A stretch of 44,565 nucleotides of DNA, taken from an uncultured Gammaproteobacteria bacterium. GTDB lineage: Bacteria > Patescibacteriota > Microgenomatia > Levybacterales > GWA1-39-11. Shown in pieces: positions 1-44,565 of the stretch. Below the pieces are notes generated by a model. The model had not been told where the DNA came from. It saw nothing but the letters and a program-made list of their open reading frames with translations, and made no database searches. Location of the stretch: the NCBI GenBank assembly GCA_964589835.1, contig CAZPUU010000001.1:1-44565 (forward strand), given 5' to 3'. Within the stretch, counting starts at the first letter, position 1. Each line of letters begins with the position of its first letter. A program made the position numbers and the translations under genes.

Positions 1-1064
1 CCCAGAAAAAACCAAAGCAAGATAAGGATCTTGACTCTAGTGTTGATATTTTTGGTTCTAATAAAGTGGAATACACCTACCAATATGAAGGGAAGCTGCC
101 ACAAATAGAGAAGACCCACACCCGGAGCTTTAAATCTACCATCCCCAGTATTACTAAATAACCAACTTGGCTTAAAATGCGACAGATACCCCTCCATCCA
201 AACCTGCACATAAAATACCCTCCGGTTAAAAATTATGCTTCCAATAAGATCGCCCTTTTGAATAGCTAAATTCCGCATATCAACAAGTTTCGAATATCTA
301 TCACCATGCCCATACGGATCAAAAACGCTGGTGCCGCGGTACCGAATCAGAGCGTTTGGTGAAAAAACAGACCAAAAAATTGCAACGGCTACAACAGACA
401 AAATAACGGTGGCAAAAAAAGATTTCTTGCTTTGCATAATGGCTTTAGTAATTTCTTTTCTATAGAGAATGACAAGACCAACAGCAAGAACCGGAACGAA
501 AACTTGACCGGAATAGTAGCTGATCATACCAAGAAGGAAAAAAGATGCAGAGATAAAAAGTGATTTTGGCTTGTCCTTTACACCTCTCAGGAAGAAATAC
601 ATTCCAAAAACTATGAATGACAAACATGCGTTGGACTCGTGCCCTATTCGCGAAATATAAATATGCCAAGGGCTCACCGCCATAAGTCCGGCCGCAAAAT
701 AAGGAAAGAGTTGCGTATATTTATCTTTTTTCTTAAAAAGATGCGCTGCTATCCCGTATACTGCCCAAACCGTAAAAATCGACAAAAGTGCTGCCGGAAG
801 CCTTGCGGAAATTGTTGATAGACCAAATAGCTTCACAAAAGGTACCTCCATTAAGAGGTATGTCGATCTCCGATAGTCATCGTACCCACGCTGCGAAACT
901 AACGGAAATTCCCCAAACTCGTCTTTGCCCGTTTCTAAAACGGAATACGCATTATACGTAATTGATGCTTCATCGAGAGAAGCAGATGGGGGGACGTTAC
1001 TCAAATTCCAAAGACGGAAAAAAGAAGCCACAAGGAGAATTATGATAAGTACGTATTTGTTCAC
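1..1064 (-). CDS. PMT_2/ArnT-like GT-C membrane glycosyltransferase (family A paralog); partial, with the C-terminal part beyond the window edge; GTG start
   Basis: Absent from the ORF track because it runs off the window and starts with GTG. The minus-strand frame is open from 1064 to position 1. Hand translation: VNKYVLIIILLVASFFRLWNLSNVPPSASLDEASITYNAYSVLETGKDEFGEFPL ... AVSPWHIYISRIGHESN ... FNRRVFYVQVWMEGYLSHFKPSWLFSNTGDGRFKAPGVGLLYLWQLPFILVG. GTG at 1064..1062 is the first start-capable codon after the in-frame stop at 1083..1085, and lies 4 nt after the stop of the upstream gene. The motifs are collinear with the CDSs at 4982, 6658, 8249, 33578 and 39305. Confidence 0.8.
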   Translation of the reverse strand, partial: MNKYVLIIILLVASFFRLWNLSNVPPSASLDEASITYNAYSVLETGKDEFGEFPLVSQRGYDDYRRSTYLLMEVPFVKLFGLSTISARLPAALLSIFTVWAVYGIAAHLFKKKDKYTQLFPYFAAGLMAVSPWHIYISRIGHESNACLSFIVFGMYFFLRGVKDKPKSLFISASFFLLGMISYYSGQVFVPVLAVGLVILYRKEITKAIMQSKKSFFATVILSVVAVAIFWSVFSPNALIRYRGTSVFDPYGHGDRYSKLVDMRNLAIQKGDLIGSIIFNRRVFYVQVWMEGYLSHFKPSWLFSNTGDGRFKAPGVGLLYLWQLPFILVGVFHFIRTKNINTRVKILILLWFFL

Positions 1065-1068
1065 TTCG

Positions 1069-2127
1069 TTAAGAAAAAATCTTTATGATTTTTAGAATTC
1101 CCATTTTTGGAACACTCCTGTTGGGAGAATCTGCATTTCCACCTATTTGAGAAAAATTCCCCTTGTTGGCAACATACCATTTATAATTATCGATAAATGT
1201 ATCGGCATTTGTTTTTTTAGGACTCCATCTCAATTTTTTCTTTATTTTAGTGGTATCTGCGTAAATTGATCTACCCATCATTGTTCTCTGATAAATCCCG
1301 AGTGGGGAAAAATTGATCTTGTCCATTATCGTCATGGCAAAAAAAGCGGGCCCAGCAGGCAGCGGCTGAATTTTGGATTTGCTGCCTGCGTAATCAATAA
1401 CACGCTGATAAAGCTGCCTTAAAGTCAAAACCTCATCCGCTCCGATCACATATACATCTACCCCTTTCCTTTCAGACGCCTTCATAAGCGCAGACACGAC
1501 ATCTCCCACATCAACAAATTGATATTTATTGTTCCCGTCACCCAATACGTATACCTTCCTGTTCTCTGAGATGAACTCATAAAGCACTGCCTGAAGACCA
1601 AGCCTTCCGATGCCGGTAATAACAGGACATCTAAAAATCTGGATATTTATTTTGTCTTTGTATTGCAACAAAACATTTTCAGCACCTGCCTTACTTTTTC
1701 CGTACGACTCAAGAGGATGAATAGGAGTGTTCTCATCGACCGGAAGCTCAACCGGTATTCCATATGTCACATTGCTTGAGGTAAAAATAATCGATTTTGC
1801 TTTCGACTTTACGGCTTGTTCTGCAAGATAAGATGTTCCATCGACATTCGTCGCAAACATTAACTTCTCATCGGCTAATTTATTTGGCATTTCGGCAGCA
1901 AGATGATAAATATCCTCAAAAGGACCATATTTATCAAATAGATTTTTAATATCTTCCTTATTAATAATATTCCCTTTTTGATAAATGATATCTTTTGCGA
2001 TTGTTTTGTCCGGATATATATCCAATTTATCAAATACAACAATTCGAGAACCCTTTTCCATCAGTAGTTTCGAAATAAGGTGTGTACCGACAAATCCTGC
2101 CCCTCCCGTTACTAATATTTTTTTCAT
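1069..2127 (-). CDS. NAD-dependent sugar epimerase/dehydratase (extended SDR family)
   Basis: 352-aa ORF. It has the N-terminal Rossmann motif VTGGAGFVGTHL, the serine block IIFTSSNVTYG and the catalytic YGKSK (YxxxK). GAGGGA lies 6 nt upstream of the ATG. Confidence 0.85.
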   Translation of the reverse strand: MKKILVTGGAGFVGTHLISKLLMEKGSRIVVFDKLDIYPDKTIAKDIIYQKGNIINKEDIKNLFDKYGPFEDIYHLAAEMPNKLADEKLMFATNVDGTSYLAEQAVKSKAKSIIFTSSNVTYGIPVELPVDENTPIHPLESYGKSKAGAENVLLQYKDKINIQIFRCPVITGIGRLGLQAVLYEFISENRKVYVLGDGNNKYQFVDVGDVVSALMKASERKGVDVYVIGADEVLTLRQLYQRVIDYAGSKSKIQPLPAGPAFFAMTIMDKINFSPLGIYQRTMMGRSIYADTTKIKKKLRWSPKKTNADTFIDNYKWYVANKGNFSQIGGNADSPNRSVPKMGILKIIKIFS

Positions 2128-2156
2128 AGTTTTTCCCTCAAAATGCTCAAGATTTA

Positions 2157-2185
2157 ATAGTATCTTATGGATTCTTCTTTCGCAA
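2157..2185 (-). promoter_or_regulatory. Candidate sigma70-like internal promoter upstream of the epimerase gene
   Basis: Read on the minus strand: TTGCGA (2185..2180), a 17-nt spacer, then TACTAT (2162..2157). It sits in the 63-nt gap, one of only three gaps over 30 nt between genes in the window. Pattern match only. Confidence 0.3.
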
Positions 2186-2190
2186 TAGAT

Positions 2191-3474
2191 TCATTTCTTG
2201 CTATTTTTATTCTTCAGTTGATAGAGATAGTATATATATGACTGCGGATCTCCTTGTACAAATTCGACTTTTTGATGAGCTTCTATTTTCTGAGAGACGG
2301 CCTTTCTGTGCGCAGACAGACCCATAGGACCCATCTCAGTGAAATGATACAGATTCACAAAAGCATAATAGCCCAGAAAAATTACAATTACGGCTTTTAC
2401 AAGTAATTTATTAATTGAAAAAATTTGAACAATTAAATATGCAAAAACCATAACAGCAACCGGACGGCTTATTGCAAAATAATAATTTGTAATTTCACCC
2501 GAGTAAGTAGAAAAGGCAAGCCATGGCACTAAGACCCAAATTATCGAAAGATATCCAATCAAAAGGTATTCCTTTTTTCTCTTAGAGAAAATTAAATACA
2601 AAAAGGCGATAAATGAACCTACCGAAAAATAAAGTGCGTATGGAAATCTCAATATGGAGTTAAATTCAATAAACCCATCTCCGATGATCTGTATAAACCT
2701 TCTTAAATGAAATCCATGGAATGTACTCCCCAAGTAGCTCGTCGCGTTACCGCCTGTTTTGGTTTGCAGATAAGAAATTGCAATTGGAGCTATAAATACC
2801 AAGAGCACAGGCAGAGAGTACAAACCGTACTTTAACGTCTCTTTTTTGCGGGGAATGAAAGGCAGTGCAAGCAGAAAAAGTACAATATAAAATATGGATG
2901 TAAAATGAATATGAAGAGAAAACCCAAAAGCAGCAGCGAGTAAGAAAAAGTATTTCATTTTTCCCATGCAAATTTTATAGATACTTAGAAAAAATAGTAA
3001 AGAAATTGGAACGATAAAATTAACAGGCCATTGCACGCGGTCCAATTCAAAAATGTAAGCTGATACGGTATTGATAAATACCGCAGCCAAAGCTACTTTT
3101 TCATTAAAAATACTTCTTACAACAAAAAACACCACAAAGAAAGTAAATATTGCAGTCAAACCGGCAACAATTGGAGAGGCGATCGGATCCATACCGGTTA
3201 TGAGATAAAATGGTACCAATAGGTAGTAGTAGTACGGGCCGATATAAAATCCCGTATTCCCTTTTGCTTGCATCCCTACAATTGGAAGCTTCCCGTCGAT
3301 AACAATATTCTTAACTGCCCATGCGTTGTCTACCTGATCATATCCAAACCCACTTTTCGTCTCCGGTTCAACAAATCGGGTTATTACCAGAAGAATAAAT
3401 AGCCCACAAAAAATGCTGAAAAGCATATTGTTTTTAAAATATTTTTTTACAATCTTATTCAATTTTTTATTCAT
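2191..3474 (-). CDS. Polytopic membrane protein, divergent PMT_2/ArnT-like GT-C candidate (family B)
   Basis: 427 aa, hydrophobic throughout. The first-loop block GFGYDQVDNAWAVKNIVIDGKLPIVGMQAKGNTGFYIGPYYYYLLVPFYLITGMDP is collinear with WGFDHGREYLMVRDII..PILIGTPLG..GIFHGPGYYYLLTIPYILFGGDP of the adjacent gene. The C-terminal GDPQSYIYYLYQL resembles the family A tail motif. Confidence 0.55.
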   Translation of the reverse strand: MNKKLNKIVKKYFKNNMLFSIFCGLFILLVITRFVEPETKSGFGYDQVDNAWAVKNIVIDGKLPIVGMQAKGNTGFYIGPYYYYLLVPFYLITGMDPIASPIVAGLTAIFTFFVVFFVVRSIFNEKVALAAVFINTVSAYIFELDRVQWPVNFIVPISLLFFLSIYKICMGKMKYFFLLAAAFGFSLHIHFTSIFYIVLFLLALPFIPRKKETLKYGLYSLPVLLVFIAPIAISYLQTKTGGNATSYLGSTFHGFHLRRFIQIIGDGFIEFNSILRFPYALYFSVGSFIAFLYLIFSKRKKEYLLIGYLSIIWVLVPWLAFSTYSGEITNYYFAISRPVAVMVFAYLIVQIFSINKLLVKAVIVIFLGYYAFVNLYHFTEMGPMGLSAHRKAVSQKIEAHQKVEFVQGDPQSYIYYLYQLKNKNSKK

Positions 3475-11828: not shown

Positions 11829-11831
11829 GTG

Positions 11832-13070
11832 TTATTTCGAGGTTCTTTCTTCCGGCCAGAAATACGCAACTAAAAAAACCATTGTGAGATAACCCATATG
11901 GCTATTGTTAAAGTAGCGTGACATATACCAATAAACAAAAGCAAGCAATCCATAGGTAAATAGCAACATCCTGATGCTTGGGTGTTTTCTCAACAGTGCA
12001 AGAATCGCGATCAATAGTGGTGTTACAACAAGCACCTGCCAAAATATAAAAGGGTACGGTGCGTTCAGGTCTTTAATAACTCCAAGTTGGTGCAAGAGGC
12101 TCCCGAGTCCATAGCCTGAAATGGGATAACTGTGAAGGGTATTACCGGAAAGATAAAAAACAGTACTATTCAAAAACGCCTCCGGATTCCAAAGAAAAAA
12201 AGGAACGCTAAAAATTACACACGTCACAACGAAGGACGCCAATCTTTTTGCAGTGATTTTAATATTATCGGATATGAAATAAAGATAAGCAAAATACAAC
12301 GGCAAAATCGGCCAAATAGACTGTTTTACAACAAATGCAAGACCTACAAGAATTCCCGACATGGTAAATCTTTTTTTTGCCAGGAGGACAAGACCGCCGA
12401 ATAAAAAGGCGAACATGAATACATCGGACCTTCCCTCGAGGGTGTACGAGAACATGGCAGGGTTAAGCGCCAAAAGTGTCGTGAACAATATCTTTTGCTC
12501 CCGATCCCGAACGATACGAAATGCCATTATGAGTAGTGATAAATAAAGAAAAAATAGTGGAATTCTGCCATCGAAATATCCGATTGTATGATTTGAAATA
12601 TAGTAAAAAGGCAAAGAAAACAGCAGATAGAACGGCATCATCACAAAATGATAAAGCGCCGGATTAACCGACGTTTCACTGTAATGCCAAGCTGCCATGA
12701 ATGTATTGTGATAAGTCGCGGCCCAAGGATTGATGCCATCCAAAAAGAACCGGATGGCAGCTTCAAGCTGCAAGATAATATCGTGAATTTGAAAAACAGG
12801 GGCAACCTTGTGCCGAACAACAATTGCAGATACAAAAGCGCCGCCAACGGCAAGTGCGAGAATTGACCAGAAAAGAATATTTTTGTAAAAATAATACCTG
12901 TTTTCAGAAAGCTTCACCACATCCAAAAGAAATGTAAGAAAGAGGCATAAGAAAATAAGGCCGAATTGGATGAAATTCGTGTCTCCCGGAAATATCTGGT
13001 AGGTCATAACGATTGGCACAATAAGCGCTGCCAATACTACACTCGAAAGCGAAAGGCGCATATTTTTCAT
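11832..13070 (-). CDS. GT87/DUF2029-like polytopic membrane glycosyltransferase candidate (family D)
   Basis: 412 aa. Loop motif IHDIILQLEAAIRFFLDGINPW, then ALNPAMFSYTLEGRSDVFMF. This resembles the D....G.NPY / LNP....G..D pattern of PimE-type GT87 proteins. ATGA overlap with the upstream GT2 synthase-like gene. Confidence 0.5.
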   Translation of the reverse strand: MKNMRLSLSSVVLAALIVPIVMTYQIFPGDTNFIQFGLIFLCLFLTFLLDVVKLSENRYYFYKNILFWSILALAVGGAFVSAIVVRHKVAPVFQIHDIILQLEAAIRFFLDGINPWAATYHNTFMAAWHYSETSVNPALYHFVMMPFYLLFSLPFYYISNHTIGYFDGRIPLFFLYLSLLIMAFRIVRDREQKILFTTLLALNPAMFSYTLEGRSDVFMFAFLFGGLVLLAKKRFTMSGILVGLAFVVKQSIWPILPLYFAYLYFISDNIKITAKRLASFVVTCVIFSVPFFLWNPEAFLNSTVFYLSGNTLHSYPISGYGLGSLLHQLGVIKDLNAPYPFIFWQVLVVTPLLIAILALLRKHPSIRMLLFTYGLLAFVYWYMSRYFNNSHMGYLTMVFLVAYFWPEERTSK

Positions 13071-13798
13071 GATGAAAATCTATATTTAACCAGAGTTGAT
13101 ACTGCCTTAAATCCGTCACGGAATGTATTCAATTTTTTCCCCTCATTATATCCACGGGGTGTAGTCGTAATCGGAATTTCTATCAAATTAAGCTTTCTTT
13201 TCAAAAGTTTCGCTGTCAATTCGGGCTCCAACTCAAATCCACGGGCATTGAGCTTTAATTCTAGCGCAGCTTTCCTGGGAAACAACTTGTAGCAAGTCTC
13301 CATATCCGTTACCCATTTTCCATACAAAACGCTCGTTAACAAACTTAAGAATTTATTCCCCAAATAGTGAAGGATGAATCGGAACGTCTTTTCCTCGCGC
13401 CCAAAATGAGGCAATCTCCGAAGCCTTGAACCATATATCACATCTTTGTTGAAATCCTTGATACCCGCAACTAACCTTATGATATCTTGAGGATTATACT
13501 CAAGGTCGGCATCCTGTATAACAATGTAGTCCCCTTTTGCTTCTGAAATTCCCGTGATGACAGCAGCTCCTTTTCCTTTATTTCTCTCGTGAATGATAAA
13601 TTTTATCTTACCCTCTTTTGAGATAAATTCTTTTATCATTTTTTGAGTTTTGTCGGTAGAACCATCGTCAACCACAAGAATTTCCTTTTCAAATTTGGGA
13701 ATTGTCACTTTTGAAACTGCACCCAAAACATCTTTAATGGTTTTCTCTTCATTGTATACGGGAATCACAATCGAAAGAAGGGGTTTTGAGGCTGTCAT
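13067..13798 (-). CDS. GT2, DPM1/GtrB-type polyprenyl-phosphate-sugar synthase-like (no TM segment)
   Basis: 243 aa. Motifs: LSIVIPVYNEE, VVDDGSTDKT, NKGKGAAV, IQDADLEYNP, YGSR. Confidence 0.7.
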   Translation of the reverse strand: MTASKPLLSIVIPVYNEEKTIKDVLGAVSKVTIPKFEKEILVVDDGSTDKTQKMIKEFISKEGKIKFIIHERNKGKGAAVITGISEAKGDYIVIQDADLEYNPQDIIRLVAGIKDFNKDVIYGSRLRRLPHFGREEKTFRFILHYLGNKFLSLLTSVLYGKWVTDMETCYKLFPRKAALELKLNARGFELEPELTAKLLKRKLNLIEIPITTTPRGYNEGKKLNTFRDGFKAVSTLVKYRFSS

Positions 13799-19158: not shown

Positions 19159-21464
19159 TTTTTCCCTCCCATATATCCTAGCACCCAATATACAACCATA
19201 CTCATCAAACCTACCAGTGCCATATAGATTCCTATCATAAAACTCATAGGCTGATAATAAAACTCTATCTTACTTTCTCCTTTTGGTACTACAACTCCGC
19301 GGAAAGAATAGTTAGTTTTGTACAATTTTTCAACTTCCCCATTTACTTTTACTTTCCATCCCGGATAGAAATTATCGGTCAGAATGAGGAATAATTTTCC
19401 TGTTGTATTTGCTTTTATCATGATATTCGTCGGTAAATAGCGCTCGATCTCCGCACTTCCGCTTGCCTTCCTATCAAGACTAGGCACGGATTCTTCAATG
19501 AATGCTTTTGTTTTCAAATCTGCATCAAACATCGCTTCAGGAATTTGCTGATGAGCAAGTTTTTCAATATCGGAAACAACAAATGCCCGTTCAAAAGCGT
19601 TGTTATTTCTAAAAACGAGATAATGGGAATCGTCGTAAATTTTTGTGAATTGAGGGAGCGGATAATCAGCAAAAGGAAATGCCCACGGGAAATTACCGTC
19701 GGAAAATTTATGTACGACATAATGTACACCCAAAAAATCTAATGCTTGGTGGGTATATTTACCCTTCAAGGGAATATTTACAACCGATCTTTCAGGCTGG
19801 AGTATTTTTCCTGCTCCAACATATTGCATAAATTCTCCATATTCAGCTTTGTAAAGAGGGTCGTACCCGCTGAGTATCGGCATTTGGTAGTACACGGCGT
19901 CCTCTCCACCCGACATTCCAATTGCCCTATCATAATGATTTTGAGCATTATAAAAATTAGCAACAGGAACGTCTATATAAGCCAACTTCTTGGGATCAAA
20001 ATTTTGCCACTTCGATGCAAATCGGTGCATTTCAAAAAAACAAACAAAAACTAGAACCAAAACGATTAGTGATGAAGCCTTTTTATTTTTCAAAAAAAGT
20101 CGCGATACAACCGAACCTATTAGAATCAATAGCGTTAACAAGGGCAAAATACTATTCTTTCTGGCTATTAAGGTTTTGTCTGCTTCATGGATCGTAAGAA
20201 ACCCTGCAAGAAAAAGACTAATAAAAAGGGCGAGTATTGTAAAACTCCAAGTCACTATCTGCTTTTTCTTACTGCCGGATTTTATGACAGCGTCCAGTCC
20301 AAACCCTGAGAGAACCGCTATCGAAAAGCTGAAAAGCACAATTATTCTGCTTGCTGCGCTGGTTGAAATAACCGGCAATTTGAGTGCAACAAGTAAATTT
20401 AAGATTGGAGTGTCAAAAGCAAAAAGTAAAGAAAGTATTGCCAGCAAAATAAAATACATCGTCTTTCTATTTCTATAAAAAAGAACGGTAAAAACGGCAA
20501 AAGACAAGGCAGTTACCCCCGCAAATCCATTCCACTCGGCATAGTGTCCAAACCAATCGTTCCTCGTTACCGGGTTGCCAAAAAAATCGGGCGAGAAAAG
20601 AGTAGTCAGGTATTGAAGGGGTATCGCCTCAAATTTTTGAAACAATCCACTTCTATATGAAAGTGAATACAATTCCAAGGACGGAAGAATTTGGGGCATT
20701 GCGACAAATAATCCGATGATAGAAAAAAATCCTGCCGCAATGTATCTTTTCTTTTCTTTTGAGATAAATGCTTGATAGCAAATGAACGACGCGATGCCAA
20801 AAGTGAAATAAAGACTTGTTTGAAAATGTCCTGCAAAATAAGACAATGGAAATGTTAGTGATAATAGAATGATCCATCTCAGTTTTTGCCCCTCGACATA
20901 CCTTAAAACGGAATACATAGCAAGGGGTAACGGGAGAATTGCATAACCCAATGTTGCGTACCCGAGCCAACACACTAAAAAACCGCAAAACATAAATGAA
21001 GCGGCTGACATAAGACTGCCCCAAGGACTTATTTTTAATTTCCGCGTCAACAAATAGGTGAATAATCCCGCCATCAATGGCTGTAAAAGAACCAGAGCAC
21101 TCCAAGCATCTATGAATTTTATTGGGAGAAAAAATAATATATTAAGCGGGAAAAAAGCAGCAGACTGGTAATTTGCGACATGTGGAGTTCCCGCAAAACT
21201 GTATGGATTCCACAGAGGCAATCTCCCCTGCTTTAATTCCTGGATCGAAAAATAACGCCAAGGATATATTTGACCGATTATATCCGGCTGTGCATTGTTC
21301 TTGACCGGGCTTCCCATTCCGGGATATGAACTCCATGGAGAAAAGAAATTAACCTGATAAGTCGAGGGGAAAGGGGTTTTACCTAAAAAAACAGGGAAGA
21401 TAAACAGCAACCATAGCAAAATTAATAAAATGGGATGGATATGGTTCTTAATTTGCTTTATCAT
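19155..21464 (-). CDS. YfhO-family GT-C membrane glycosyltransferase (family E)
   Basis: 769 aa. Contains LPLWNPYSFAGTPHVANYQSAAFFPLNILFF, the C-terminal module NFYPGWKVKVNGEVEKLYKTNYSFRGVVVPKGESKIEFYYQP, and then a terminal TM plus basic tail. Confidence 0.8.
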   Translation of the reverse strand: MIKQIKNHIHPILLILLWLLFIFPVFLGKTPFPSTYQVNFFSPWSSYPGMGSPVKNNAQPDIIGQIYPWRYFSIQELKQGRLPLWNPYSFAGTPHVANYQSAAFFPLNILFFLPIKFIDAWSALVLLQPLMAGLFTYLLTRKLKISPWGSLMSAASFMFCGFLVCWLGYATLGYAILPLPLAMYSVLRYVEGQKLRWIILLSLTFPLSYFAGHFQTSLYFTFGIASFICYQAFISKEKKRYIAAGFFSIIGLFVAMPQILPSLELYSLSYRSGLFQKFEAIPLQYLTTLFSPDFFGNPVTRNDWFGHYAEWNGFAGVTALSFAVFTVLFYRNRKTMYFILLAILSLLFAFDTPILNLLVALKLPVISTSAASRIIVLFSFSIAVLSGFGLDAVIKSGSKKKQIVTWSFTILALFISLFLAGFLTIHEADKTLIARKNSILPLLTLLILIGSVVSRLFLKNKKASSLIVLVLVFVCFFEMHRFASKWQNFDPKKLAYIDVPVANFYNAQNHYDRAIGMSGGEDAVYYQMPILSGYDPLYKAEYGEFMQYVGAGKILQPERSVVNIPLKGKYTHQALDFLGVHYVVHKFSDGNFPWAFPFADYPLPQFTKIYDDSHYLVFRNNNAFERAFVVSDIEKLAHQQIPEAMFDADLKTKAFIEESVPSLDRKASGSAEIERYLPTNIMIKANTTGKLFLILTDNFYPGWKVKVNGEVEKLYKTNYSFRGVVVPKGESKIEFYYQPMSFMIGIYMALVGLMSMVVYWVLGYMGGKK

Positions 21465-22623
21465 GACGGATTAATTTTACTATTCTTACAAAACCTGTTA
21501 CTAACAGTATATATATAAATGGAAGAAGTGGGAGAAAGTACCTTGTCGAGGTGTAGCCTGTCGAAAGCATTAGAGAATATCCAACAACCCAAAGGATTAA
21601 GATAATCTCGTATTGTGTAATTTGAATTTTTTTAACAAGAGCAAGAATTGCAGTTGCGCTACTGATAACAACCGCAATTGGCCAGTATATCCTCCATTGC
21701 GGATCAGATAGTATTTCGTACTCACCCCACCATGTATGCCATCTGTTGAATAAAATTAAATCCCAAAAGGAGAAAGCGTTGGTAAATGCCGATTTATGAT
21801 ACGCAAGTATATACTTTTGCACACCAAAAATTTGAATTATAGAATATCCGTCCTGGATAGTCTTCGTATAGGAAAGGAGCAAAACGATGAGCGAGAGTGG
21901 CAGTGTAAGTCCGAAAATCAAGAGCTCCTTCATGCTCTTTTTGAAAAAAAGCAAATAACTACCCATCACAACCACCATTAAAGCACCGGTAACAAAGAAA
22001 CGGATACTTATAACAAATCCCAAAAGTATAGAGGTGACAATGAATGGAAGGATTTTTTTCTGATTCTTTATTCCCAGAAAGAAAAAATAAAACGCAAAAA
22101 TAATAAACGGCAGCTGCACCGGCTCCGGGAGAGGAGCATACAGTAATTTATTCAGAGTCAGTGGTTCATTGGCAAAAATTGCAACCGGAATTAGACTGAG
22201 AAAAATATTTTTTGTTATAAAATATGAAATTAGAAATATTCCCAAAAAAGACAATGACAAGAAAAATAGAATTAAGGTACTAGCGTTATCAAAAAAAACA
22301 ATCGAAAGAGAAAGCAAATATCTTCCCAGCGGTGGATGATCATGAACTATTAAAATTGGGTTCATTCCTTTTAGAAATGCCCCCGCAGCGAAGGATTCAA
22401 ATGTTTCATCCGGTATTATACCCGCACCATCTTTTTTAGCATATTGAGAAGAATAGTAGGCATTCTTGAGATTTTTATACTCATTTGCGTATCCTCCTCC
22501 AAAAAATTTACCCTGATTTTGTACTATCAAATAGAAAAATTGGGCAAATATAAAAGCCAAGGCAATGACAAAAAAAATCCATTTTTCAAATTTGTTGATT
22601 CTTTGATTTTTATTTTTTTTCAT
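21448..22623 (-). CDS. Minimal PMT (GT39)-like membrane glycosyltransferase
   Basis: The first-loop block IIPDETFESFAAGAFLKGMNPILIVHDHPPLGRYLL matches the DE...HPPLGK signature of protein O-mannosyltransferase-type GT-C enzymes. Preferred start is the ATG at 22623 (GGAGG at 22633..22629, 5-nt spacer), giving 391 aa. The track start at 22662 adds 13 aa with no RBS. Confidence 0.65.
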   Translation of the reverse strand: MKKNKNQRINKFEKWIFFVIALAFIFAQFFYLIVQNQGKFFGGGYANEYKNLKNAYYSSQYAKKDGAGIIPDETFESFAAGAFLKGMNPILIVHDHPPLGRYLLSLSIVFFDNASTLILFFLSLSFLGIFLISYFITKNIFLSLIPVAIFANEPLTLNKLLYAPLPEPVQLPFIIFAFYFFFLGIKNQKKILPFIVTSILLGFVISIRFFVTGALMVVVMGSYLLFFKKSMKELLIFGLTLPLSLIVLLLSYTKTIQDGYSIIQIFGVQKYILAYHKSAFTNAFSFWDLILFNRWHTWWGEYEILSDPQWRIYWPIAVVISSATAILALVKKIQITQYEIILILWVVGYSLMLSTGYTSTRYFLPLLPFIYILLVTGFVRIVKLIRHDKAN

Positions 22624-24247
22624 TTTTCCTCCATACAACAACACCAAATACAAAAAGAGCAAGTGCCGTCAAAATGGTAAGAACATTTGAAAGAAGCCGT
22701 AATTTTGTATCTTCAAAAACTACCGCCACATCATACGTTCCTTTTGGTAATTCAAAGGTTATTAAACCCCGTTCGGAAGGATCTTGGAATTGTATCGGAA
22801 GATCTTTCCCTTTTACTCTCGCGTGCCACCCGGGAAAGTAAAGTGTATTTTCCCGCAACCGCGCATTTTCTGTATCAACAATAATTGTATATATGTGACT
22901 TGTTGATGTCCGACTGACTTGTTGGATTAAGGCCTTTCCAGAAATTGTTTCAATCGGCGCTTGCGGTTTTTTCTCCATAAATCGTACCGACCAAATCGGA
23001 GCGCTTTCTCCTGTGTCAGTGGTTCCGTTATATATTTGTTCGTAAAATGAGTCGGAACTTTGCGTATACGCCTTGGCCTTCCAGTAAGGTAGGGTTGTAA
23101 CAAAAAGAACCGTTGCAATCATAACGACACCCCATACTCTTTTTTTCTTCTCCAATAACAATAAGGGGCACGCAGCAAGAACAGCGGAGGCAAAAGCAGT
23201 AAGACTTAAAAATCGCCAAGGGAATTGGAATTTCTTAAATATTGTAACTATTTCGTACACGAAATTTGAAACTGAAAGTTGAATAAATAGAGAAAATAGT
23301 AATACAAGCAACAAAATGAAAAGTAATATCTTTTGAGACTTCTTAATACTTTTCCTGAAAAATAGAAATGGCAAAAGCAATAACCCTGCAATCTGAGCAA
23401 TACCGATCTGAACAGTGAACTGTCCGGTTATTCCGTAATTCCACTCACCATATAAAAATTTCAGCGGATTATCTATGAAACGCGATCTGTATTCATTTCC
23501 TGTCACAATATCACGAAGCGTAAATTTCCCTTCCAAAAAAGCAGGAATTGTAAAAAATCCTGATAGTAAAAATCCGGCAATAAAAAATATCCCGACCATC
23601 AATAGGTGATTATATTTTTTTGAAATGATTGAAAGATATACACCATAAATTATAAAAATTGGAATAAACATAAGGCTGATCGCATTGTGGGAAAGCAGCA
23701 ATAATGCAAAACTCACACTTACTCCTATCAAATCTATTGAGGATTTTTTATTGTATTCATTTCTAAAATAACGAATCATAAAATACAGAACAAGAGGTGG
23801 AAATATAAATGCCATATGTTCTCCGATTGCTCCCCTGACATACAGATCAACAAATCTATAGGGGGCAAAAAGATAAAGAAGAGCTGCTGCAAACCCGACA
23901 TTCTGATCAAACTGCTCCTTTGCCCATAGATACATTGCAATTCCGCTCGCAACATATCCCAATCCAAATATCATCTTCAATGAATCAACATACGAAAAAC
24001 CAATAAAGTGAAAAAATGAAGCTGTATATGAAGAAAAGGGATACAAAAACATCAATATTGGATGACCATATCCCCAGTTGAGAAGCTCTGCCCAGCGAGG
24101 TACAACAACACCTTCAGACAACGCGCGATAAAAGTTTGCAATCCTTGCAACGTGATCTACTCCATCATGAGTTACAGGAAGCCCACCCGGCAAAAGCCCT
24201 GCAAGAGGCAGCAGAGCAATAATAATTAACAATAAATACTTTTTCAT
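22610..24247 (-). CDS. COG5617/'PTPS-related'-like polytopic membrane protein (family F), putative GT-C
   Basis: 545 aa. N-terminal block LPVTHDGVDHVARIANFYRALSEGVVVPRWAELLNWGYGHPILMFLYPFSSY. C-terminal module LYFPGWHARVKGKDLPIQFQDPSERGLITFELPKGTYDVAVVFEDTKLR, then a terminal TM. Confidence 0.5.
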   Translation of the reverse strand: MKKYLLLIIIALLPLAGLLPGGLPVTHDGVDHVARIANFYRALSEGVVVPRWAELLNWGYGHPILMFLYPFSSYTASFFHFIGFSYVDSLKMIFGLGYVASGIAMYLWAKEQFDQNVGFAAALLYLFAPYRFVDLYVRGAIGEHMAFIFPPLVLYFMIRYFRNEYNKKSSIDLIGVSVSFALLLLSHNAISLMFIPIFIIYGVYLSIISKKYNHLLMVGIFFIAGFLLSGFFTIPAFLEGKFTLRDIVTGNEYRSRFIDNPLKFLYGEWNYGITGQFTVQIGIAQIAGLLLLPFLFFRKSIKKSQKILLFILLLVLLFSLFIQLSVSNFVYEIVTIFKKFQFPWRFLSLTAFASAVLAACPLLLLEKKKRVWGVVMIATVLFVTTLPYWKAKAYTQSSDSFYEQIYNGTTDTGESAPIWSVRFMEKKPQAPIETISGKALIQQVSRTSTSHIYTIIVDTENARLRENTLYFPGWHARVKGKDLPIQFQDPSERGLITFELPKGTYDVAVVFEDTKLRLLSNVLTILTALALFVFGVVVWRKNEKK

Positions 24248-28018: not shown

Positions 28019-28036
28019 AGATTTAAGTTTATCAGA

Positions 28037-29494: not shown

Positions 29495-29520
29495 ACGCTC
29501 TTCATCTTATCTGCCATTAA

Positions 29521-30234
29521 TTATATTCTTTTATTATGTATATCAAACCAAAGAATAAAACTCTCCAATACTGCCCTCACAACAACTGCTATATTAGCTC
29601 CACTTTGGTCTCCGAATTCTCGAGGATAATGGTTTACTTCAACTTCTTTTATTTTAAGTTTTTTTCTGGTTGCCTTGGCAAGAATTTCCGTTGTAATCAT
29701 CGCGCCCTCCGAGCGAAGCGGCATGATTTCATTGAATACGGACTTTCGGAACATCTTGAAACCGCAATCGATATCCTTGAAATAAAACCGAAAGAATACA
29801 AAATCCCATATTTTAAGCAAATACATAAGAACGTGACGTACAAATTTATCTCGTCGTTTTTTACGGAAACCAATTACTATGTCGGAACCATTTATGGCAT
29901 CAACAAATTTATCGACTTCGGAAAAATCAAATTGCCGATCCCCATCGGTGAAAACAACGTATTTATATCGTGCATTTTCAAATCCTTCCCTAAGCGCTGC
30001 CCCATAACCCCTGTTCGGAGAGTGAGTAATAGCTCTCACATTCTTGTATTTTTGGGCCAACTCACGGCCTATTTCGTACGTCTTGTCAGACGATCCATCG
30101 TCGATGATCAATATCTCCCATTGCTCTGCTATTGATTTTGCAACAGGTATTGCGCTTTCGACGACATGCTTTACGTTCTTTTCCTCATTCCAAAAAGGAA
30201 AAAATATGGAAAGTTCAGGTAACTTCTTTTGCAT
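29521..30234 (-). CDS. GT2, DPM1/Ppm1-type polyprenyl-phosphate-sugar synthase-like
   Basis: 237 aa. Motifs: LSIFFPFWNEEKN, IIDDGSSDKT, NRGYGAALREG, FTDGDRQFD, GFRKKR, DCGFKMF. Confidence 0.7.
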   Translation of the reverse strand: MQKKLPELSIFFPFWNEEKNVKHVVESAIPVAKSIAEQWEILIIDDGSSDKTYEIGRELAQKYKNVRAITHSPNRGYGAALREGFENARYKYVVFTDGDRQFDFSEVDKFVDAINGSDIVIGFRKKRRDKFVRHVLMYLLKIWDFVFFRFYFKDIDCGFKMFRKSVFNEIMPLRSEGAMITTEILAKATRKKLKIKEVEVNHYPREFGDQSGANIAVVVRAVLESFILWFDIHNKRI

Positions 30235-30235
30235 G

Positions 30236-33573: not shown

Positions 33574-33577
33574 AGTT

Positions 33578-41038: not shown

Positions 41039-41040
41039 CT
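41029..41040. repeat. 12-bp perfect palindrome AGTTAATTAACT carrying the stop codons of both convergent genes
   Basis: The plus-strand TAA is at 41036..41038 and the minus-strand TAA is the reverse complement of 41031..41033. The sequence reads identically on both strands. Confidence 0.9.
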
Positions 41041-42581
41041 GATTTGACCTGATAGATGGTTAATTGAGTGCTGCCAATCCCCTTCTTATAACTTCTTACC
41101 TCAACTAATCCCAAAGCCTCCGGAGCCTTTCCCGGGTACTCACAGTTTGGACAGGGTTGATAAAAAACAAAATATACAGGCATTTTTTTTGCCATTTCCA
41201 GAAGCTCTTCCGGCAATTTTTCGTTATCTACCGGCCAATACCCTTTTATTGTTATGTTCTTCTTCCCCAGAAAATAAATTTCGTAGGACGATGGTAATAG
41301 ACCAAATGTTCCTTGAGTCGCTACGAATACCGGCCCGTTCTTAGCCTGATCCTCAAAAAATTTGGAACTTTCCGCGATTCCGCCACCCGCCGGCCATCCG
41401 TTAATATATTGCTCCAGGTCAAGACGGGGAATAGGAGCTTTCGGAAAATTGAAAAGGATTGAGTAATCCATATATAGAGGGACTGCAAAAGCACCGATTA
41501 TAATTATTGCTCTTATCCATATTTTTTTAAATTTCGATAGTAACGATACAATTGAAAGAGCAACAAGAGGTATGAGCGGCATAACCATAAAAAATACATA
41601 TCTGGGATATAACGTTTTACCAAAGACACAAAGTCCCAAAAAAGGAAGAATAAACCATAATAATAGAACTATCTTTTCTTTCAAAAATTTCTTCTCAACA
41701 AAAAAAGCATAAAGCGCCAAAAGAATAAATGGCAGAGTGAAATAAATATAAAACCAATTAAACAAACCGTTAAAATTGCCTGAGAAGTTATGTATTTTGT
41801 CGACAAACCTGAATTTCATCCACTCACTGACAGGATAGACGAAAATTGAATTCTTCTCCTCAATGATATGAAAGAATGGTGAAAGTCTTAGGATCGAATA
41901 CATGCCGTACGCAATACATGCCGCAACCCCGGCATAGACAATGAATTTAAGCGTCCGGTTTTTCATGCTTTTCTTAGCTCCCTCCATAAGAAGCAAAAGA
42001 AACGGCATCAGATATATCGACAAAAACCCTATGGATTTCGTAAGAACTGCCCCTCCGAGAACAAACCCCAATACCAAGGAGTGATCAAATCTTAAAGTCC
42101 TGACAAGCCGAATCTGAAAATATAAGGCCCATACAAAAAAAGCAGCTACCAAACTTTCATATATTGCAAGCCTGTCATAAACAAGTGAGAACGGGAACAA
42201 CACAACAATCGATGAAGCGACGAGACCAACAATCCGCGCCTTTTTATTTAGTTGTCCAAAAATTTCCAGACTCAAAAAATACAAACCAACAACTGTCAAA
42301 AAACCTGCGCCTACCGAAACGAGTCTGCCCGAAAGAAGCGGGTCATCGATAATTTTCATGACTATCATGTCCAGCCAAACAAAAGAAGGTTGCTTGCCGT
42401 CAGTTAAAGATATAAATCTCCAATTCGAATCAAATCTCGCGATTTGTGCCCACCGCGTATAGATCGCCTCGTCCGTAAATATAGGGACGGACAGAATTGT
42501 TGCAAGTCTGCTTGCCAGAAAAATGACAATTAATATTGGGAACGCAATAAGTTCAGGCAAAAGCTTCTTTATATATTTCAT
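41031..42581 (-). CDS. ArnT/PMT_2-type (GT83/GT39-like) GT-C membrane glycosyltransferase with a C-terminal soluble domain containing CPNC
   Basis: 516 aa. The first-loop motif IFTDEAIYTRWAQI is followed by TDGKQPSFVW and multiple TM segments. The non-hydrophobic tail runs ...VYFVFYQPCPNCEYPGK.... Confidence 0.7.
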   Translation of the reverse strand: MKYIKKLLPELIAFPILIVIFLASRLATILSVPIFTDEAIYTRWAQIARFDSNWRFISLTDGKQPSFVWLDMIVMKIIDDPLLSGRLVSVGAGFLTVVGLYFLSLEIFGQLNKKARIVGLVASSIVVLFPFSLVYDRLAIYESLVAAFFVWALYFQIRLVRTLRFDHSLVLGFVLGGAVLTKSIGFLSIYLMPFLLLLMEGAKKSMKNRTLKFIVYAGVAACIAYGMYSILRLSPFFHIIEEKNSIFVYPVSEWMKFRFVDKIHNFSGNFNGLFNWFYIYFTLPFILLALYAFFVEKKFLKEKIVLLLWFILPFLGLCVFGKTLYPRYVFFMVMPLIPLVALSIVSLLSKFKKIWIRAIIIIGAFAVPLYMDYSILFNFPKAPIPRLDLEQYINGWPAGGGIAESSKFFEDQAKNGPVFVATQGTFGLLPSSYEIYFLGKKNITIKGYWPVDNEKLPEELLEMAKKMPVYFVFYQPCPNCEYPGKAPEALGLVEVRSYKKGIGSTQLTIYQVKSVN

Positions 42582-42601
42582 TTGTATATTGTAACAAAAA
42601 G

Positions 42602-43759
42602 TTACTTTTTTACCTTTCTCCAGAAAGGTAAAAAGCCGACCACTAAAAACAGGGAAAGAATTGTGGCGCCAAGAACTAGGTTATTTAAAAATGTCGGAAT
42701 TGGTTCGTTCCACGACCCCTCGTGTAAATAAGGTATGTAATATATGATGTTGGTAATAGAAAAAATGAAAAGTGGATAACGGACAATTTGTTTTTCAATC
42801 ATAAGCACTGCGAAAGGCACCACGTACAATAAATACCAAGGCTGGAAATTTGTCCGAAGTGCTGCCAAAATAACGCCTACAATCATCAAAATAATTGATA
42901 AACCGATGAAATATTTTGTTTTTGATAGGCCAAGAAGAATAAAATAACCGATGATAAAAAGCGCTGTTACAAATTTTATACCGATAGATAAAACGTAAAG
43001 AACACTCCCCTTCACCCTTTCTTTTCTCAAAATATAGTACGTACCAAGCATCGCCATGCCCATCATAACTATATCGTTATGGGCAGAAACCAGACTTTCT
43101 GTAAACACAAAAGGATTAAGCGCAAAGGCTGCAATAGGCAGAAGCGTATTTTTCAATTTAAGAATATGCGCAATCTTTCCGATGGACCATGCTGTTATCA
43201 AGAAAAACCCCGCCATCAAGAACTTGAACAGGAAAAAAGTAAGAAGAAAGAAGTTGTTGCCGATAAATGTTAACGGCACTGTTAACACAAGCCAAAATGG
43301 ACCATACGGATACGTTCTGTGCGTCCAGTGCATAAATGAAAGCATCGGATCACCCGGATAATCGAGTGCCTTATGAAAATATGGATTCTGGTGATAAAAA
43401 GATATTATCCTTGCGTCAAAAATGTAATTAAAAATATCTCTTGAAAAGGCAGTGTAGGAAAATGCAAGAATAACCGTTGCGATGATAATTATGCGCCATA
43501 TTAATGTAGAAGAAATTGCACTTTTAGAAATCAGCCGGAGGGTCAAAAAGTAGAGAGAGAAAAGAAAAACAAATACTCCTATGTACAAATATGTAGAGAG
43601 CGGTCTATTGAACCACCCTATATATTGGAATCCTTTTTCGATTGTTTGAATAATTGAAGCCCTGGAAAGAGTGAGGGAGAGATCAACTTGTGTGTAAGAA
43701 TAGAGAAACAGTAGAAAAAAGGCACTCACCCATAAAGGCAATAGAAGTTTTTTCATCAT
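42602..43759 (-). CDS. GT87/DUF2029-like polytopic membrane glycosyltransferase candidate (family D)
   Basis: Contains SRDIFNYIFDARIISFYHQNPYFHKALDYPGDPMLSFMHWTHRTYPYGPFWL and ALNPFVFTESLVSAHNDIVMMG. Preferred start is the ATG at 43759 (MMKKLLLPLW, 385 aa), 1 nt after the upstream stop and with AGGAAGG 10 nt upstream. The track start at 43810 would overlap the upstream gene by 50 nt. Confidence 0.55.
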   Translation of the reverse strand: MMKKLLLPLWVSAFFLLFLYSYTQVDLSLTLSRASIIQTIEKGFQYIGWFNRPLSTYLYIGVFVFLFSLYFLTLRLISKSAISSTLIWRIIIIATVILAFSYTAFSRDIFNYIFDARIISFYHQNPYFHKALDYPGDPMLSFMHWTHRTYPYGPFWLVLTVPLTFIGNNFFLLTFFLFKFLMAGFFLITAWSIGKIAHILKLKNTLLPIAAFALNPFVFTESLVSAHNDIVMMGMAMLGTYYILRKERVKGSVLYVLSIGIKFVTALFIIGYFILLGLSKTKYFIGLSIILMIVGVILAALRTNFQPWYLLYVVPFAVLMIEKQIVRYPLFIFSITNIIYYIPYLHEGSWNEPIPTFLNNLVLGATILSLFLVVGFLPFWRKVKK

Positions 43760-43760
43760 A

Positions 43761-44516
43761 CTAATTATACCTTCCTGAAGTGATGTTTCGTCGGATTTTA
43801 AACAACTCAAAAAACCCCTCGACCGAATCCTTGAAAGGTGACACTCTTCTGGTCTCTACATACAACCAGTCGACAGGAACTTCCTTAATCTTGTAACCCA
43901 TATTTTTTGCAACAAATAGCAACTCTATATCAAATCCAGCAGTAACAGAAGATCCGTGAATCGATTTGAATCCGTGGTGGCTATCTTTAACCTTTTCAAA
44001 AATATCTTTCGCCGCCTTTTTTGTAAACAATTTAAATCCGCACTGGGTATCCTTTATTTCCCCAAGACCAACTATTGCCGAGCGTAATACCATCATCCCC
44101 TTTGCCATGATTTTTCGGGTCAGAGGCGCTCCCTGTCTGTTTGAATTCCTCGAACCGATCACTACATCATATCCCTTCTTTATATAAGGAAGCAGCTCTT
44201 CAAGCTCCTCGATAGGTGTTGCTTGATCCATATCCGTAAACAAAATGTTTTCTCCTACTGCCTGTAACATGCCGGTTGTTACCGCCCCAGCTTTACCCGA
44301 ATGAGAATTCTCGATCACCCTGAAATTTTTTTCATCACTTACAAATTTTTGTACAAATTCAAGCCCGCCATCGGAAGAGCCATCGTCAACTATTATCACT
44401 TCGTAGGAAAATTTCTGTTTGTCTAAATAATTTTTGACCTTGGAAAGAATTCCCTTCCTGAGATTTCCCATTTCGTTATATGAAGGTATAACAACAGATA
44501 AAAAGATCGATGTCAT
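43761..44516 (-). CDS. GT2, DPM1/ALG5-type polyprenyl-phosphate-sugar synthase-like
   Basis: 251 aa. Motifs: LSVVIPSYNE, IVDDGSSDGG, SGKAGAVTTG, FTDMDQATP, IGSR, TQCGFKLF. No TM segment. Confidence 0.7.
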   Translation of the reverse strand: MTSIFLSVVIPSYNEMGNLRKGILSKVKNYLDKQKFSYEVIIVDDGSSDGGLEFVQKFVSDEKNFRVIENSHSGKAGAVTTGMLQAVGENILFTDMDQATPIEELEELLPYIKKGYDVVIGSRNSNRQGAPLTRKIMAKGMMVLRSAIVGLGEIKDTQCGFKLFTKKAAKDIFEKVKDSHHGFKSIHGSSVTAGFDIELLFVAKNMGYKIKEVPVDWLYVETRRVSPFKDSVEGFFELFKIRRNITSGRYN

Positions 44517-44565
44517 GGAATTATTATATACAATTCAGACTTTTAATAACATATCGCTTGAAAAG
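44517..44565 (-). promoter_or_regulatory. Possible promoter with -10 box immediately upstream of 43761..44516 (near-leaderless)
   Basis: There is a minus-strand TATAAT at 44529..44524, only 7 nt from the ATG at 44516. No good -35 element. The region is cut by the window edge. Confidence 0.25.

Follow-up and report, generated by a model that had tools for sequence, protein, structure and literature searches.

Glycosyltransferases of the GT-C class use lipid-linked donors and act on the membrane's outer face, and in mycobacteria and the endoplasmic reticulum (ER) two or three such donors feed a dozen or more linkage-specific GT-Cs. Lipid-linked donors are made by glycosyltransferase family 2 (GT2) enzymes of the GtrB/CsbB type, for which the CsbB-YfhO systems are a precedent (PMC5836110), while a second precedent combines a polyprenyl-phosphoribose synthase with a multidrug and toxic compound extrusion (MATE) flippase, a GT-C and an epimerase of the short-chain dehydrogenase/reductase (SDR) type (PMC11127046). 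Here we describe a window of 44,565 nt, which is one complete NCBI contig from an uncultured bacterium of the Levybacteria lineage (Microgenomates, Candidate Phyla Radiation (CPR)) and was analysed over its whole length. An earlier note made from its letters had proposed that an island of GT-C-type membrane proteins and their lipid-linked sugar supply genes follows the same logic as known systems on a larger scale. Our results support that reading, as the locus joins candidate donor synthases, a flippase-family protein, Leloir glycosyltransferases and intact GT-Cs in operon-like packing. The window probably represents most of a conserved cell-envelope glycan locus, which would carry out the multi-step assembly and decoration of one or a few extracytoplasmic glycoconjugates by a polyprenyl-phosphate-sugar/GT-C logic. 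Gene content, the fold or family of each protein, motif conservation, synteny and orthology, and the integrity of the assembly were established directly.

The window holds 32 coding sequences (CDSs), namely 30 complete open reading frames (ORFs), gene g00, which is cut by the window start, and an ORF encoding a protein of 84 aa. This bears out the count in the earlier note, and a recount of its 21 large hydrophobic proteins gives 34,868 nt or 78.2% of the window where approximately 34.8 kb and 78% had been given. Pfam and NCBIfam searches also agree with its inventory of the remainder, comprising three DPM1/GtrB-like GT2s, four other GT2s, one GT4, one Wzx-like flippase, one SDR and one tiny membrane protein. 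The statement that nothing present is unrelated to glycosylation holds for all but this last protein (DUF5652), where a link to glycosylation is not demonstrated. The 21 hydrophobic proteins are 391-784 aa long with a grand average of hydropathy (GRAVY) of 0.38-0.82 and 7-14 transmembrane (TM) segments by hydropathy. All have the polytopic architecture of GT-Cs (approximately 7-13 or more TM helices), and the AlphaFold2 (AF2) models of g7 and g15 are helical bundles. Homology to established families is provided by Pfam for 16 of the 21, which score above its gathering thresholds as PMT_2/PMT (g00, g2, g3, g5, g6, g24, g28), GT87 (g8, g29), YfhO (g11, g14, g26) or PTPS_related (g16, g22, g23, g25); by paralogy for g4 and g27, which are 36% and 30% identical to g24 (BLASTP E 1e-110 and 5e-63); and by Foldseek for g15 and for g7 with its paralogue g17. 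The Pfam search returned no match for g7, g15, g17 and g27. Hidden Markov model (HMM) searches, profile-profile comparison, paralogy, homologue annotation and structure searches together show that all 21 large membrane proteins are of GT-C type and not transporters, which answers the concern of the earlier note that most might prove to have transporter or other non-GT-C folds.

The locus contains 5-8 GT-C families. Ten of the proteins are PMT_2-type paralogues, distributed over families A, A2, A3 and F. In profile-profile alignment with hhalign, the three PMT_2 families A, A2 and A3 join PTPS_related and YfhO with probabilities between 80 and 99.7 (A-A2 99.6, A-A3 98.9). The same comparison joins A2 to GT87 at 94 and leaves family B unlinked to the PMT_2, PTPS_related, YfhO or GT87 profiles. 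Among the GT-C queries searched against the PDB by sequence, the family-A profile alone reaches an entry, ArnT (5ezm), and does so weakly (E 8.7e-4); the YfhO and PTPS_related profiles and the single sequences of g8, g29 and g5 found nothing significant. With these searches near-empty, assignment of the GT-Cs to a nearest enzyme is impossible. For g29, the identical gene in an independent assembly (L002) carries PF26314 (MptA_B_family), and NCBIfam MptA is matched at E 6.6e-22 with 78 bits against a cut-off of 439; in the GT87 group MptB scores 32.8 against a cut-off of 40. A C-terminal domain of approximately 95 aa is common to YfhO and PTPS_related members, residues 685-780 of g26 matching the C-termini of g16, g22, g23 and g25 (BLASTP E 1e-3 to 2e-7), and is possibly an extracytoplasmic carbohydrate-binding module.

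Family B (g7 and g17, 31% identical over 645 aa, BLASTP E 1e-84) finds no match in Pfam, in NCBIfam or among PDB sequences. The AF2 model of g7 (pLDDT 90.2, pTM 0.90) was compared with the PDB by Foldseek, where the best 15 matches are STT3, AglB, PglB, AftA and ALG12 (E 5e-7 to 3e-3) and the rest are non-significant. For both g7 and g15, transporter structures appear in the Foldseek lists only among the non-significant matches. Together g7 and g17 make up a GT-C family that neither Pfam nor NCBIfam nor the sequences of the PDB cover. At E<=1e-3, 1.84 billion proteins yield 1,628 cluster representatives of the family, and 9 of 42 members touch the uncharacterised DUF6541 weakly, below threshold. 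Its invariant residues are D138 and N167-Y168-H169 (g7 numbering). As the conserved Asp follows an apparent fourth helix, the positive-inside rule suggests that family B has three extra N-terminal helices ahead of the catalytic loop. A nearly invariant adjacent Cys-Cys pair (C132-C133 in g7) lies close to D138, to the likewise invariant P154-P155 and to N167-Y168-H169. An identity of family B as an oligosaccharyltransferase was considered and rejected, given that STT3 is not matched by sequence, the WWD motif is absent from 42 of 42 members and the C-terminal domain is small. Family F is represented by g15, whose homologues are 50-70% identical and well conserved at approximately 390 aa; PF13231 is present in many of them, which NCBI lists as 'glycosyltransferase family 39 protein [Candidatus Levybacteria]'. 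The best 30 PDB matches of its AF2 model (pLDDT 89.3) are all GT-Cs, with ArnT, STT3, PglB, AglB, Pmt4, AftA, GPI-MT-I, ALG3 and Emb among them.

All ORFs are intact, and alignments of the window proteins with orthologues from related loci show that every GT-C family has an acidic residue, placed 5-30 residues downstream of an N-terminal TM helix, that is 92-100% conserved. The helix in question is TM1 in most families and approximately TM4 in family B. The residues are D36-E37 in family A ('WDEA', 100% conserved), D46 or D38 in A2, D37-E38 in A3, D61-D71 in YfhO, D28-D36 in PTPS_related ('HD'), D85 and D108-H109 in family F ('HDHPPLG'), H96-D97 or D125 in GT87 and D138 in family B. The loop motifs WDEA, HD, GFD/GYD and HDHPPLG picked out in the earlier note are all present.

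These motifs bear on one alternative, in which the locus encodes a battery of protein O-glycosyltransferases acting on secreted or surface proteins such as S-layer proteins, pili or large adhesins. Pmt in actinobacteria and PMTs in eukaryotes glycosylate proteins, g5 passes the Pfam PMT model, and the Asp-Glu pair that PMTs have in loop 1 is retained in family A. A single Pmt suffices for many substrates in actinobacteria, which sits poorly with a battery of enzymes, and no candidate substrate protein lies in or beside the island. A glycosylated S-layer has been suggested as explaining the abundance of glycosyltransferases in four CPR genomes (PMC3812714), but the relatives of the YfhO, GT87/MptA_B and PTPS_related proteins are tied to glycan or lipoglycan acceptors and not to proteins (PMC5836110 and the NCBIfam similarity to MptA/MptB), and we regard this alternative as improbable for the locus as a whole.

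The contig derives from a metagenome and four of its proteins lack a Pfam match, which before testing gave some reason to suspect a chimeric assembly of paralogues or misclassified transporters. No support for either was found, and an artefact of this kind is now barely credible. A Logan contig of 130,308 bp matches window positions 26970-44565 at 99.95% identity in one part (L002) and positions 1-12130 at 98.1% in another (L008); the spacing of the two parts, 14,840 nt in the Logan contig, equals that in the window. A JGI assembly (L003) and a further locus (L004) are 99.6-99.96% identical, and a protein identical to g26 occurs on 9 contigs from other samples. Collinear independent assemblies (98.1-99.96%), the absence of DNA repeats between paralogues and uniform GC content together reject a chimera, while the proteins without a Pfam match have GT-C folds. 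The same DNA and gene order in other samples thereby disposes of the chimeric contig that the earlier note had named as a risk.

The independent assemblies also define the extent of the island. To the right of g30 (in L002) lie malic enzyme, a PCC-domain (PF03479) protein, an acetyltransferase and pyruvate phosphate dikinase (PPDK), housekeeping genes which place the end of the island there. To the left of the window start (L008 11064-21059) follow the rest of g00, a GT2, a PMT_2 GT-C of 512 aa, a second SDR and a GT4, and further on a second Wzx-like flippase, a fourth DPM1-like GT2, a GT4 and a GT2 up to the end of the fetched sequence. The island therefore spans at least 53 kb with at least 22 GT-Cs and extends at least 9 kb beyond the window; the earlier note was right about its content and fell short on its extent. 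The left flank resembles a conventional Wzx-dependent polysaccharide cluster, and a metagenome scan with a left-flank protein found only distant relatives.

The locus was compared with 46 loci around family-B homologues in GTDB species representatives, at approximately 22 kb per locus. The relatives belong to Levybacteria/Levyibacteriota, Gottesmanbacteria, Curtissbacteria, Woesebacteria and metagenome-assembled genomes (MAGs) titled 'Patescibacteria group' or 'Microgenomates group', and are also found in MAGs titled Candidatus Saccharimonadales (L031) and Candidatus Acidiferrales (L052). At least 29 of the 46 loci contain 5-11 GT-C-like ORFs covering 50-95% of the DNA, and Pfam-annotated loci from named Levybacteria genomes have the same content. 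In the closest species (L012) the genes are collinear from g14 to g2 with protein identities of 51-75%; orthologues are 40-57% identical in more distant Levybacteria and 34-44% in Gottesmanbacteria, where rearrangements are seen. The highest identity among the orthologues compared there is that of g8, at 70-75% in L012, L014 and L017. The locus is thus syntenic across Levybacteria and recognisable in Gottesmanbacteria and Woesebacteria, and is passed on vertically, as a conserved trait of Levybacteria and their Microgenomates relatives rather than a one-off. Paralogues within the window are 25-36% identical whereas orthologues reach 40-75%, which indicates that the paralogues are ancient and individually conserved, and this in turn argues for distinct functions. 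A mobile or recently transferred island was considered and rejected on the basis of uniform GC, housekeeping genes directly to the right and synteny across species. Many third party annotation (TPA) MAGs with a Levybacteria-type island (L012-L017, L020, L022, L024-L027, L029 and others) are titled 'uncultured Gammaproteobacteria' or 'Pseudomonadales', titles which look like mislabels or placeholder taxonomy. In a named Levybacteria genome (L069, PFMB01000025.1, 11391-19077), three Fic-domain genes stand among the GT4, Wzx and GT2 genes of the equivalent region.

Smaller units recur within this framework. A triad of PTPS_related GT-C, DPM1-like GT2 and flippase of the multidrug/oligosaccharidyl-lipid/polysaccharide (MOP) superfamily, Wzx-like (g22-g21-g20), is found again in eight further loci (L034, L042, L048, L051-L054, L070) and looks like a conserved three-component module inside the larger island, and the pairing of a DPM1-like GT2 with GT87 (g9-g8, g30-g29) also recurs across species. 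Such mini-modules resemble Gtr and CsbB-YfhO units (PMC5836110, PMC11127046), and together with a GT-C content that differs between species round a conserved scaffold they lend some weight to a second alternative, in which independent three-component decoration modules each add a side-chain sugar to a polymer made elsewhere, be it teichoic-acid-like, peptidoglycan or S-layer glycan. This is unlikely overall, as only 3-4 donor synthases serve 21-22 GT-Cs, most GT-Cs are collinear orthologues (40-75%) unlike patchy mobile serotype-converting modules, and phage or mobile-element genes are absent with GC uniform. It is similarly doubtful that the many paralogues would then serve to vary the surface, for instance in defence against phages or in the recognition of hosts. 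Either this alternative or that of protein O-glycosylation could nevertheless hold for part of the locus.

Sugar supply is represented by g9, g21 and g30, which are 237-251 aa long, mutual paralogues by BLASTP and devoid of a TM segment by hydropathy. Along its whole catalytic domain g9 matches the Pyrococcus furiosus Dol-P-Man synthase 5mlz (E 1.5e-18), with ArnC and GtrB likewise matched. NCBIfam matches, all below cut-off, are to AglJ, PpgS and Dol-P-hexose transferase for g9, to ArnC, AglJ and PpgS over the catalytic domain for g21 and to PgfS, ArnC and Dol-P-hexose transferase for g30. The assignment of supply genes in the earlier note is thereby upheld, since all three match polyprenyl-phosphate glycosyltransferases (DPMS, ArnC, GtrB, PpgS) over most or all of the catalytic domain, and by sequence similarity they are candidate polyprenyl-phosphate-sugar synthases. 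Each adjoins a GT-C gene (g9-g8, g21-g22, g30-g29), and these adjacencies recur in other species. The flippase g20, which adjoins g21, scores below cut-off (E 1e-41) against the NCBIfam model 'MOP flippase family protein'. The nearest PDB entries of the SDR g1 are UDP-glucose 4-epimerases, its NCBIfam matches to GalE and dTDP-glucose dehydratase all being below cut-off, and g10, g13, g18 and g19 are generic GT2s. The DUF5652 ORF has the same place and antisense orientation in 16 related loci (tblastn, 35-70% identity) and its product might serve as a small flippase, as an accessory subunit or in regulation. It fills the single true gap in the 35-kb minus-strand array.

Our results suggest a model for how these components would act together; its donor type, topology, sequence of steps, acceptor and product are inferred. 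The soluble GT2s g9, g21 and g30, with the fourth in the left flank, would charge polyprenyl phosphate at the inner membrane face with single sugars taken from nucleotide sugars, and polyprenyl-phosphate-linked sugars are the candidate donors of the GT-Cs in view of the DPM1/GtrB-like GT2 genes beside them. The lipid-linked sugars may then be flipped by the MOP/Wzx protein g20 or another flippase, after which the 21 GT-Cs, or 22 with the flank, would pass them singly to acceptors on the far side of the membrane. A lipid-linked primer glycan and modified sugars probably come from the Leloir GT2 and GT4 enzymes together with the flippase or flippases and the SDR or SDRs. A few donors serving many linkage-specific GT-Cs is the design of mycobacterial lipomannan/lipoarabinomannan (LM/LAM) and arabinogalactan and of the ER lumen, and by this analogy the product is most likely one or a few complex surface glycoconjugates rather than one simple decoration.

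Several observations weigh against this model of a multi-step assembly line. GT-C content varies between species around the conserved scaffold, with g6, which has one orthologue in the 46 related loci and none in L012, and g16, g17 and DUF2079 as the variable elements; in the Levybacteria locus L070 (JACOXT010000003.1), equivalents of g16 and g17 are lacking and a DUF2079 protein, of what we take to be a GT-C-clan family, lies inside the island at 18132-19538. Such variation fits modular decoration as well as it fits a fixed assembly line. All matches in the window to NCBIfam equivalog models fall well short of the cut-offs, which precludes the assignment of any sugar or linkage. The outward orientation of the acidic loop is a prediction from hydropathy, the positive-inside rule and analogy. 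None of the window proteins matches a GtrA/SMR-type flippase, and neither the window nor the fetched flanks contain an initiating phosphoglycosyltransferase, an acceptor protein or a polymer backbone gene.

The genes of the window (Table 1) are tightly packed, with a coding fraction of 99.1% and overlaps at 19 of the 31 junctions, many of the 4-nt ATGA type. Twenty-four co-directional genes run on the minus strand from position 35206 down to 1 (approximately 35 kb), and sizeable gaps are limited to one of 133 nt that separates the divergent g24 and g25 and to the stretch holding the small plus-strand ORF. GC content is 0.35-0.40 along the window with no compositional break. Scans for tRNAs, Rfam families and DNA repeats found nothing in the window, including no DNA-level repeats between paralogues, which argues against a mobile island and against recent duplication. 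Promoter and terminator scans of the window did not exceed shuffled expectation, so operon structure is argued from gene packing only.

Table 1. Genes of the 44,565-nt window with their assignments, positions and strands.
Gene	Assignment	Position	Strand	Basis or remark
g00	PMT_2-type GT-C, family A	1..1064	-	354 of 546 aa (5' part), GTG start at 1064; Pfam PMT_2 49 bits
g1	Extended SDR sugar epimerase/dehydratase, 352 aa	1069..2127	-	Pfam Epimerase and GDP_Man_Dehyd
g2	GT-C, distant PMT_2 (family A2), 427 aa	2191..3474	-	Pfam PMT_2 30.4 bits; conserved D46
g3	GT-C, distant PMT_2 (family A2), 504 aa	3471..4985	-	Pfam PMT_2 27.2 bits; conserved D38 in 'GFD'
g4	GT-C, PMT_2 family A, 559 aa	4982..6661	-	PMT_2 19 bits (below gathering score); paralogy to g24; D36-E37 'WDEA'
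g5	GT-C, PMT/PMT_2 family A, 535 aa	6658..8265	-	Pfam PMT 50.5 bits, PMT_2 49.9 bits
g6	GT-C, PMT_2 family A, 538 aa	8249..9865	-	Pfam PMT_2 33.9 bits; varies between species
g7	GT-C fold, family B, 656 aa	9858..11828	-	AF2 model and Foldseek
g8	GT-C, GT87 family, 412 aa	11832..13070	-	Pfam GT87 37.1 bits
g9	Soluble DPM1/GtrB/ArnC-like GT2, 243 aa, candidate polyprenyl-phosphate-sugar synthase	13067..13798	-	
g10	GT2, Leloir-type, 310 aa	13795..14727	-	Pfam Glycos_transf_2; NCBIfam EpsD and PgaC-like matches below cut-off
g11	GT-C, YfhO family, 761 aa	14728..17013	-	Pfam YfhO 64.6 bits; conserved D71
g12	GT4, 355 aa	17007..18074	-	Pfam Glycos_transf_1 68 bits
DUF5652 ORF	DUF5652 small membrane protein, 84 aa	18152..18406	+	Pfam DUF5652 51.7 bits; antisense to array
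g13	GT2, 261 aa	18403..19188	-	Pfam Glycos_transf_2; paralogue of g19 (30% identical)
g14	GT-C, YfhO family, 769 aa	19155..21464	-	Pfam YfhO 72.8 bits
g15	Small GT-C, family F, GT39-like, 391 aa	21448..22623	-	Homologue annotation and AF2/Foldseek
g16	GT-C, PTPS_related, 545 aa	22610..24247	-	Pfam PTPS_related 49.9 bits and PMT_2 24.7 bits, same region
g17	GT-C fold, family B, 656 aa	24244..26214	-	Paralogy to g7
g18	GT2, 304 aa	26211..27125	-	Pfam Glyco_tranf_2_3 and Glycos_transf_2
g19	GT2, 298 aa	27122..28018	-	Pfam Glycos_transf_2 83 bits
g20	MOP-superfamily (Wzx-like) flippase, 485 aa	28037..29494	-	Pfam Polysacc_synt_3 165 bits
g21	Soluble DPM1/ArnC-like GT2, 237 aa, candidate polyprenyl-phosphate-sugar synthase	29521..30234	-	Between GT-C and flippase genes
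g22	GT-C, PTPS_related, 560 aa	30236..31918	-	Pfam 55 bits
g23	GT-C, PTPS_related, 552 aa	31915..33573	-	Pfam 47.8 bits
g24	GT-C, PMT_2 family A, 542 aa	33578..35206	-	Pfam PMT_2 48.1 bits; first gene of 35-kb minus-strand array
g25	GT-C, PTPS_related, 549 aa	35340..36989	+	Pfam 46 bits; divergent from g24
g26	GT-C, YfhO family, 784 aa	36970..39324	+	Pfam YfhO 93.8 bits
g27	GT-C, PMT_2 family A by paralogy, 577 aa	39305..41038	+	No Pfam match; D36-E37 conserved
g28	GT-C, distant PMT_2 (family A3), 516 aa	41031..42581	-	Pfam PMT_2 35.9 bits
g29	GT-C, GT87/MptA_B-like, 402 aa	42602..43810	-	Pfam GT87 27.3 bits
g30	Soluble DPM1/GtrB-like GT2, 251 aa, candidate polyprenyl-phosphate-sugar synthase	43761..44516	-	Last island gene

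Some gene boundaries merit comment. The truncated g00 is 34% identical to g24 and to g4 by BLASTP, and its full 546-aa gene is seen in L008. For g15 the longest ORF (21448..22662) begins with TTG at 22662, but homologues of 391 aa favour the ATG at 22623. The start of g29 is ambiguous, 385 aa being called in L004 and 402 aa in L002, and the orthologue of g23 is called as 509 aa in L003 rather than 552 aa.

The envelope and host-contact surface of CPR bacteria (Patescibacteria) are largely uncharacterised, and their genomes are tiny (approximately 1 Mb in the host lineage) with little biosynthetic capacity. A conserved extracytoplasmic glycosyltransferase locus of at least 53 kb in such a tiny genome implies a surface glycan under strong selection; the island would take up roughly 5% of the ultra-small genome, whose size is assumed from the group. 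Each protein class and the proposed mechanism were already known, and NCBI labels some relatives as GT39 family. What is new is the presence of 21-22 GT-Cs of 5-8 families in one locus, its conservation across Microgenomates, the soluble anchor-less donor synthases, the conserved DUF5652 partner and the unclassified GT-C family, and the GT-C density of the locus appears unprecedented. No published description of the locus was found in the searchable full-text literature on CPR/Microgenomates glycosyltransferases, which is the sole basis on which the system can be called undescribed, as the earlier note had it. The nearest statement in the literature describes four CPR genomes as rich in glycosyltransferases, with polysaccharides, glycoproteins or a glycosylated S-layer as possible products (PMC3812714). 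The locus yields three or four candidate lipid-sugar synthases, a set of conserved, probably catalytic residues and a defined gene set, and adds the unclassified family B, remotely DUF6541-like, and many diverged YfhO and PTPS_related members without a solved relative by PDB sequence search. More tentatively, it is conceivable that Levybacteria and related Microgenomates build a lineage-specific complex envelope glycoconjugate almost entirely outside the cytoplasmic membrane by an operon-like line of more than 20 GT-Cs. If so, the lineage would have its own equivalent of the GT-C pathways of the ER lumen and of mycobacteria, and its product could be the main surface layer or a host-attachment determinant of these bacteria. 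The locus would gain in interest should its product turn out to be an envelope polymer that defines the lineage.

Among known systems, the oligosaccharyltransferases STT3, AglB and PglB head the Foldseek list for the g7 model with a general likeness of fold (E 5e-7 to 8e-5, TM-score approximately 0.45), and like them family B is multi-pass with a C-terminal extracytoplasmic domain. In contrast to these enzymes it has no detectable sequence similarity to them, no WWD motif (42 members) and a C-terminal domain of only approximately 135 aa. With ArnT and the PMTs (GT83/GT39) the island shares the Pfam PMT_2 and PMT domains and an Asp-Glu pair after TM1 in families A and A3. Two sequence marks of GT39, a PMT/PMT_2 domain and the loop-1 Asp-Glu, are present, g5 matching PMT at 50.5 bits and the pair being 100% conserved in family A. 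The family-A profile is weakly similar to 5ezm and the g15 model aligns with ArnT. Unlike ArnT or the PMTs, the island proteins have no MIR domain and ten diverged PMT_2-type paralogues take the place of one or two enzymes. CPR bacteria are without lipid A (PMC3812714), so lipid A is no target here, unlike for ArnT.

The three-component systems compared were GtrA/GtrB/GtrC of Salmonella and Shigella, CsbB-(GtcA)-YfhO of Bacillus and Listeria and the GT136 system of Citrobacter. As in these, a GT2 of polyprenyl-phosphate-sugar type lies beside a GT-C, and YfhO-family proteins are present; as in Citrobacter, where a polyprenyl-phosphoribose synthase is accompanied by a MATE flippase, a GT136 GT-C and an SDR epimerase, the island has a Wzx-like protein of the MOP/MATE flippase superfamily and an SDR (PMC11127046). 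The island differs in having 21-22 GT-Cs, whereas a three-component system has one, which attaches one side-chain sugar to a polymer already made, and in its GT2 synthases, which lack the C-terminal TM anchor of GtrB, CsbB and ArnC. It also differs in having no match to a GtrA-type flippase and no identified backbone polymer pathway. The island therefore works like a three-component system and is not a simple member of the class.

Comparison with mycobacterial and corynebacterial LM/LAM and arabinogalactan synthesis (Ppm1; PimE, MptA, MptB, MptC; EmbA/B/C; AftA-D) shows differences in family composition and gene arrangement. Most island members are PMT_2, PTPS_related, YfhO or family B, matches to the MptA/MptB models are below cut-off, and Emb/Aft (Arabinose_trans), DprE1/2, DPPRS and UbiA-type proteins found no match among the 32 window proteins. 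The mycobacterial genes are scattered, whereas the island is a single locus of at least 53 kb. The likeness to these pathways lies in g8 and g29 (GT87/MptA_B), which adjoin Ppm1-like GT2s, in the presence of GT4 and in the overall design, where a few lipid donors would again serve many linkage-specific GT-Cs.

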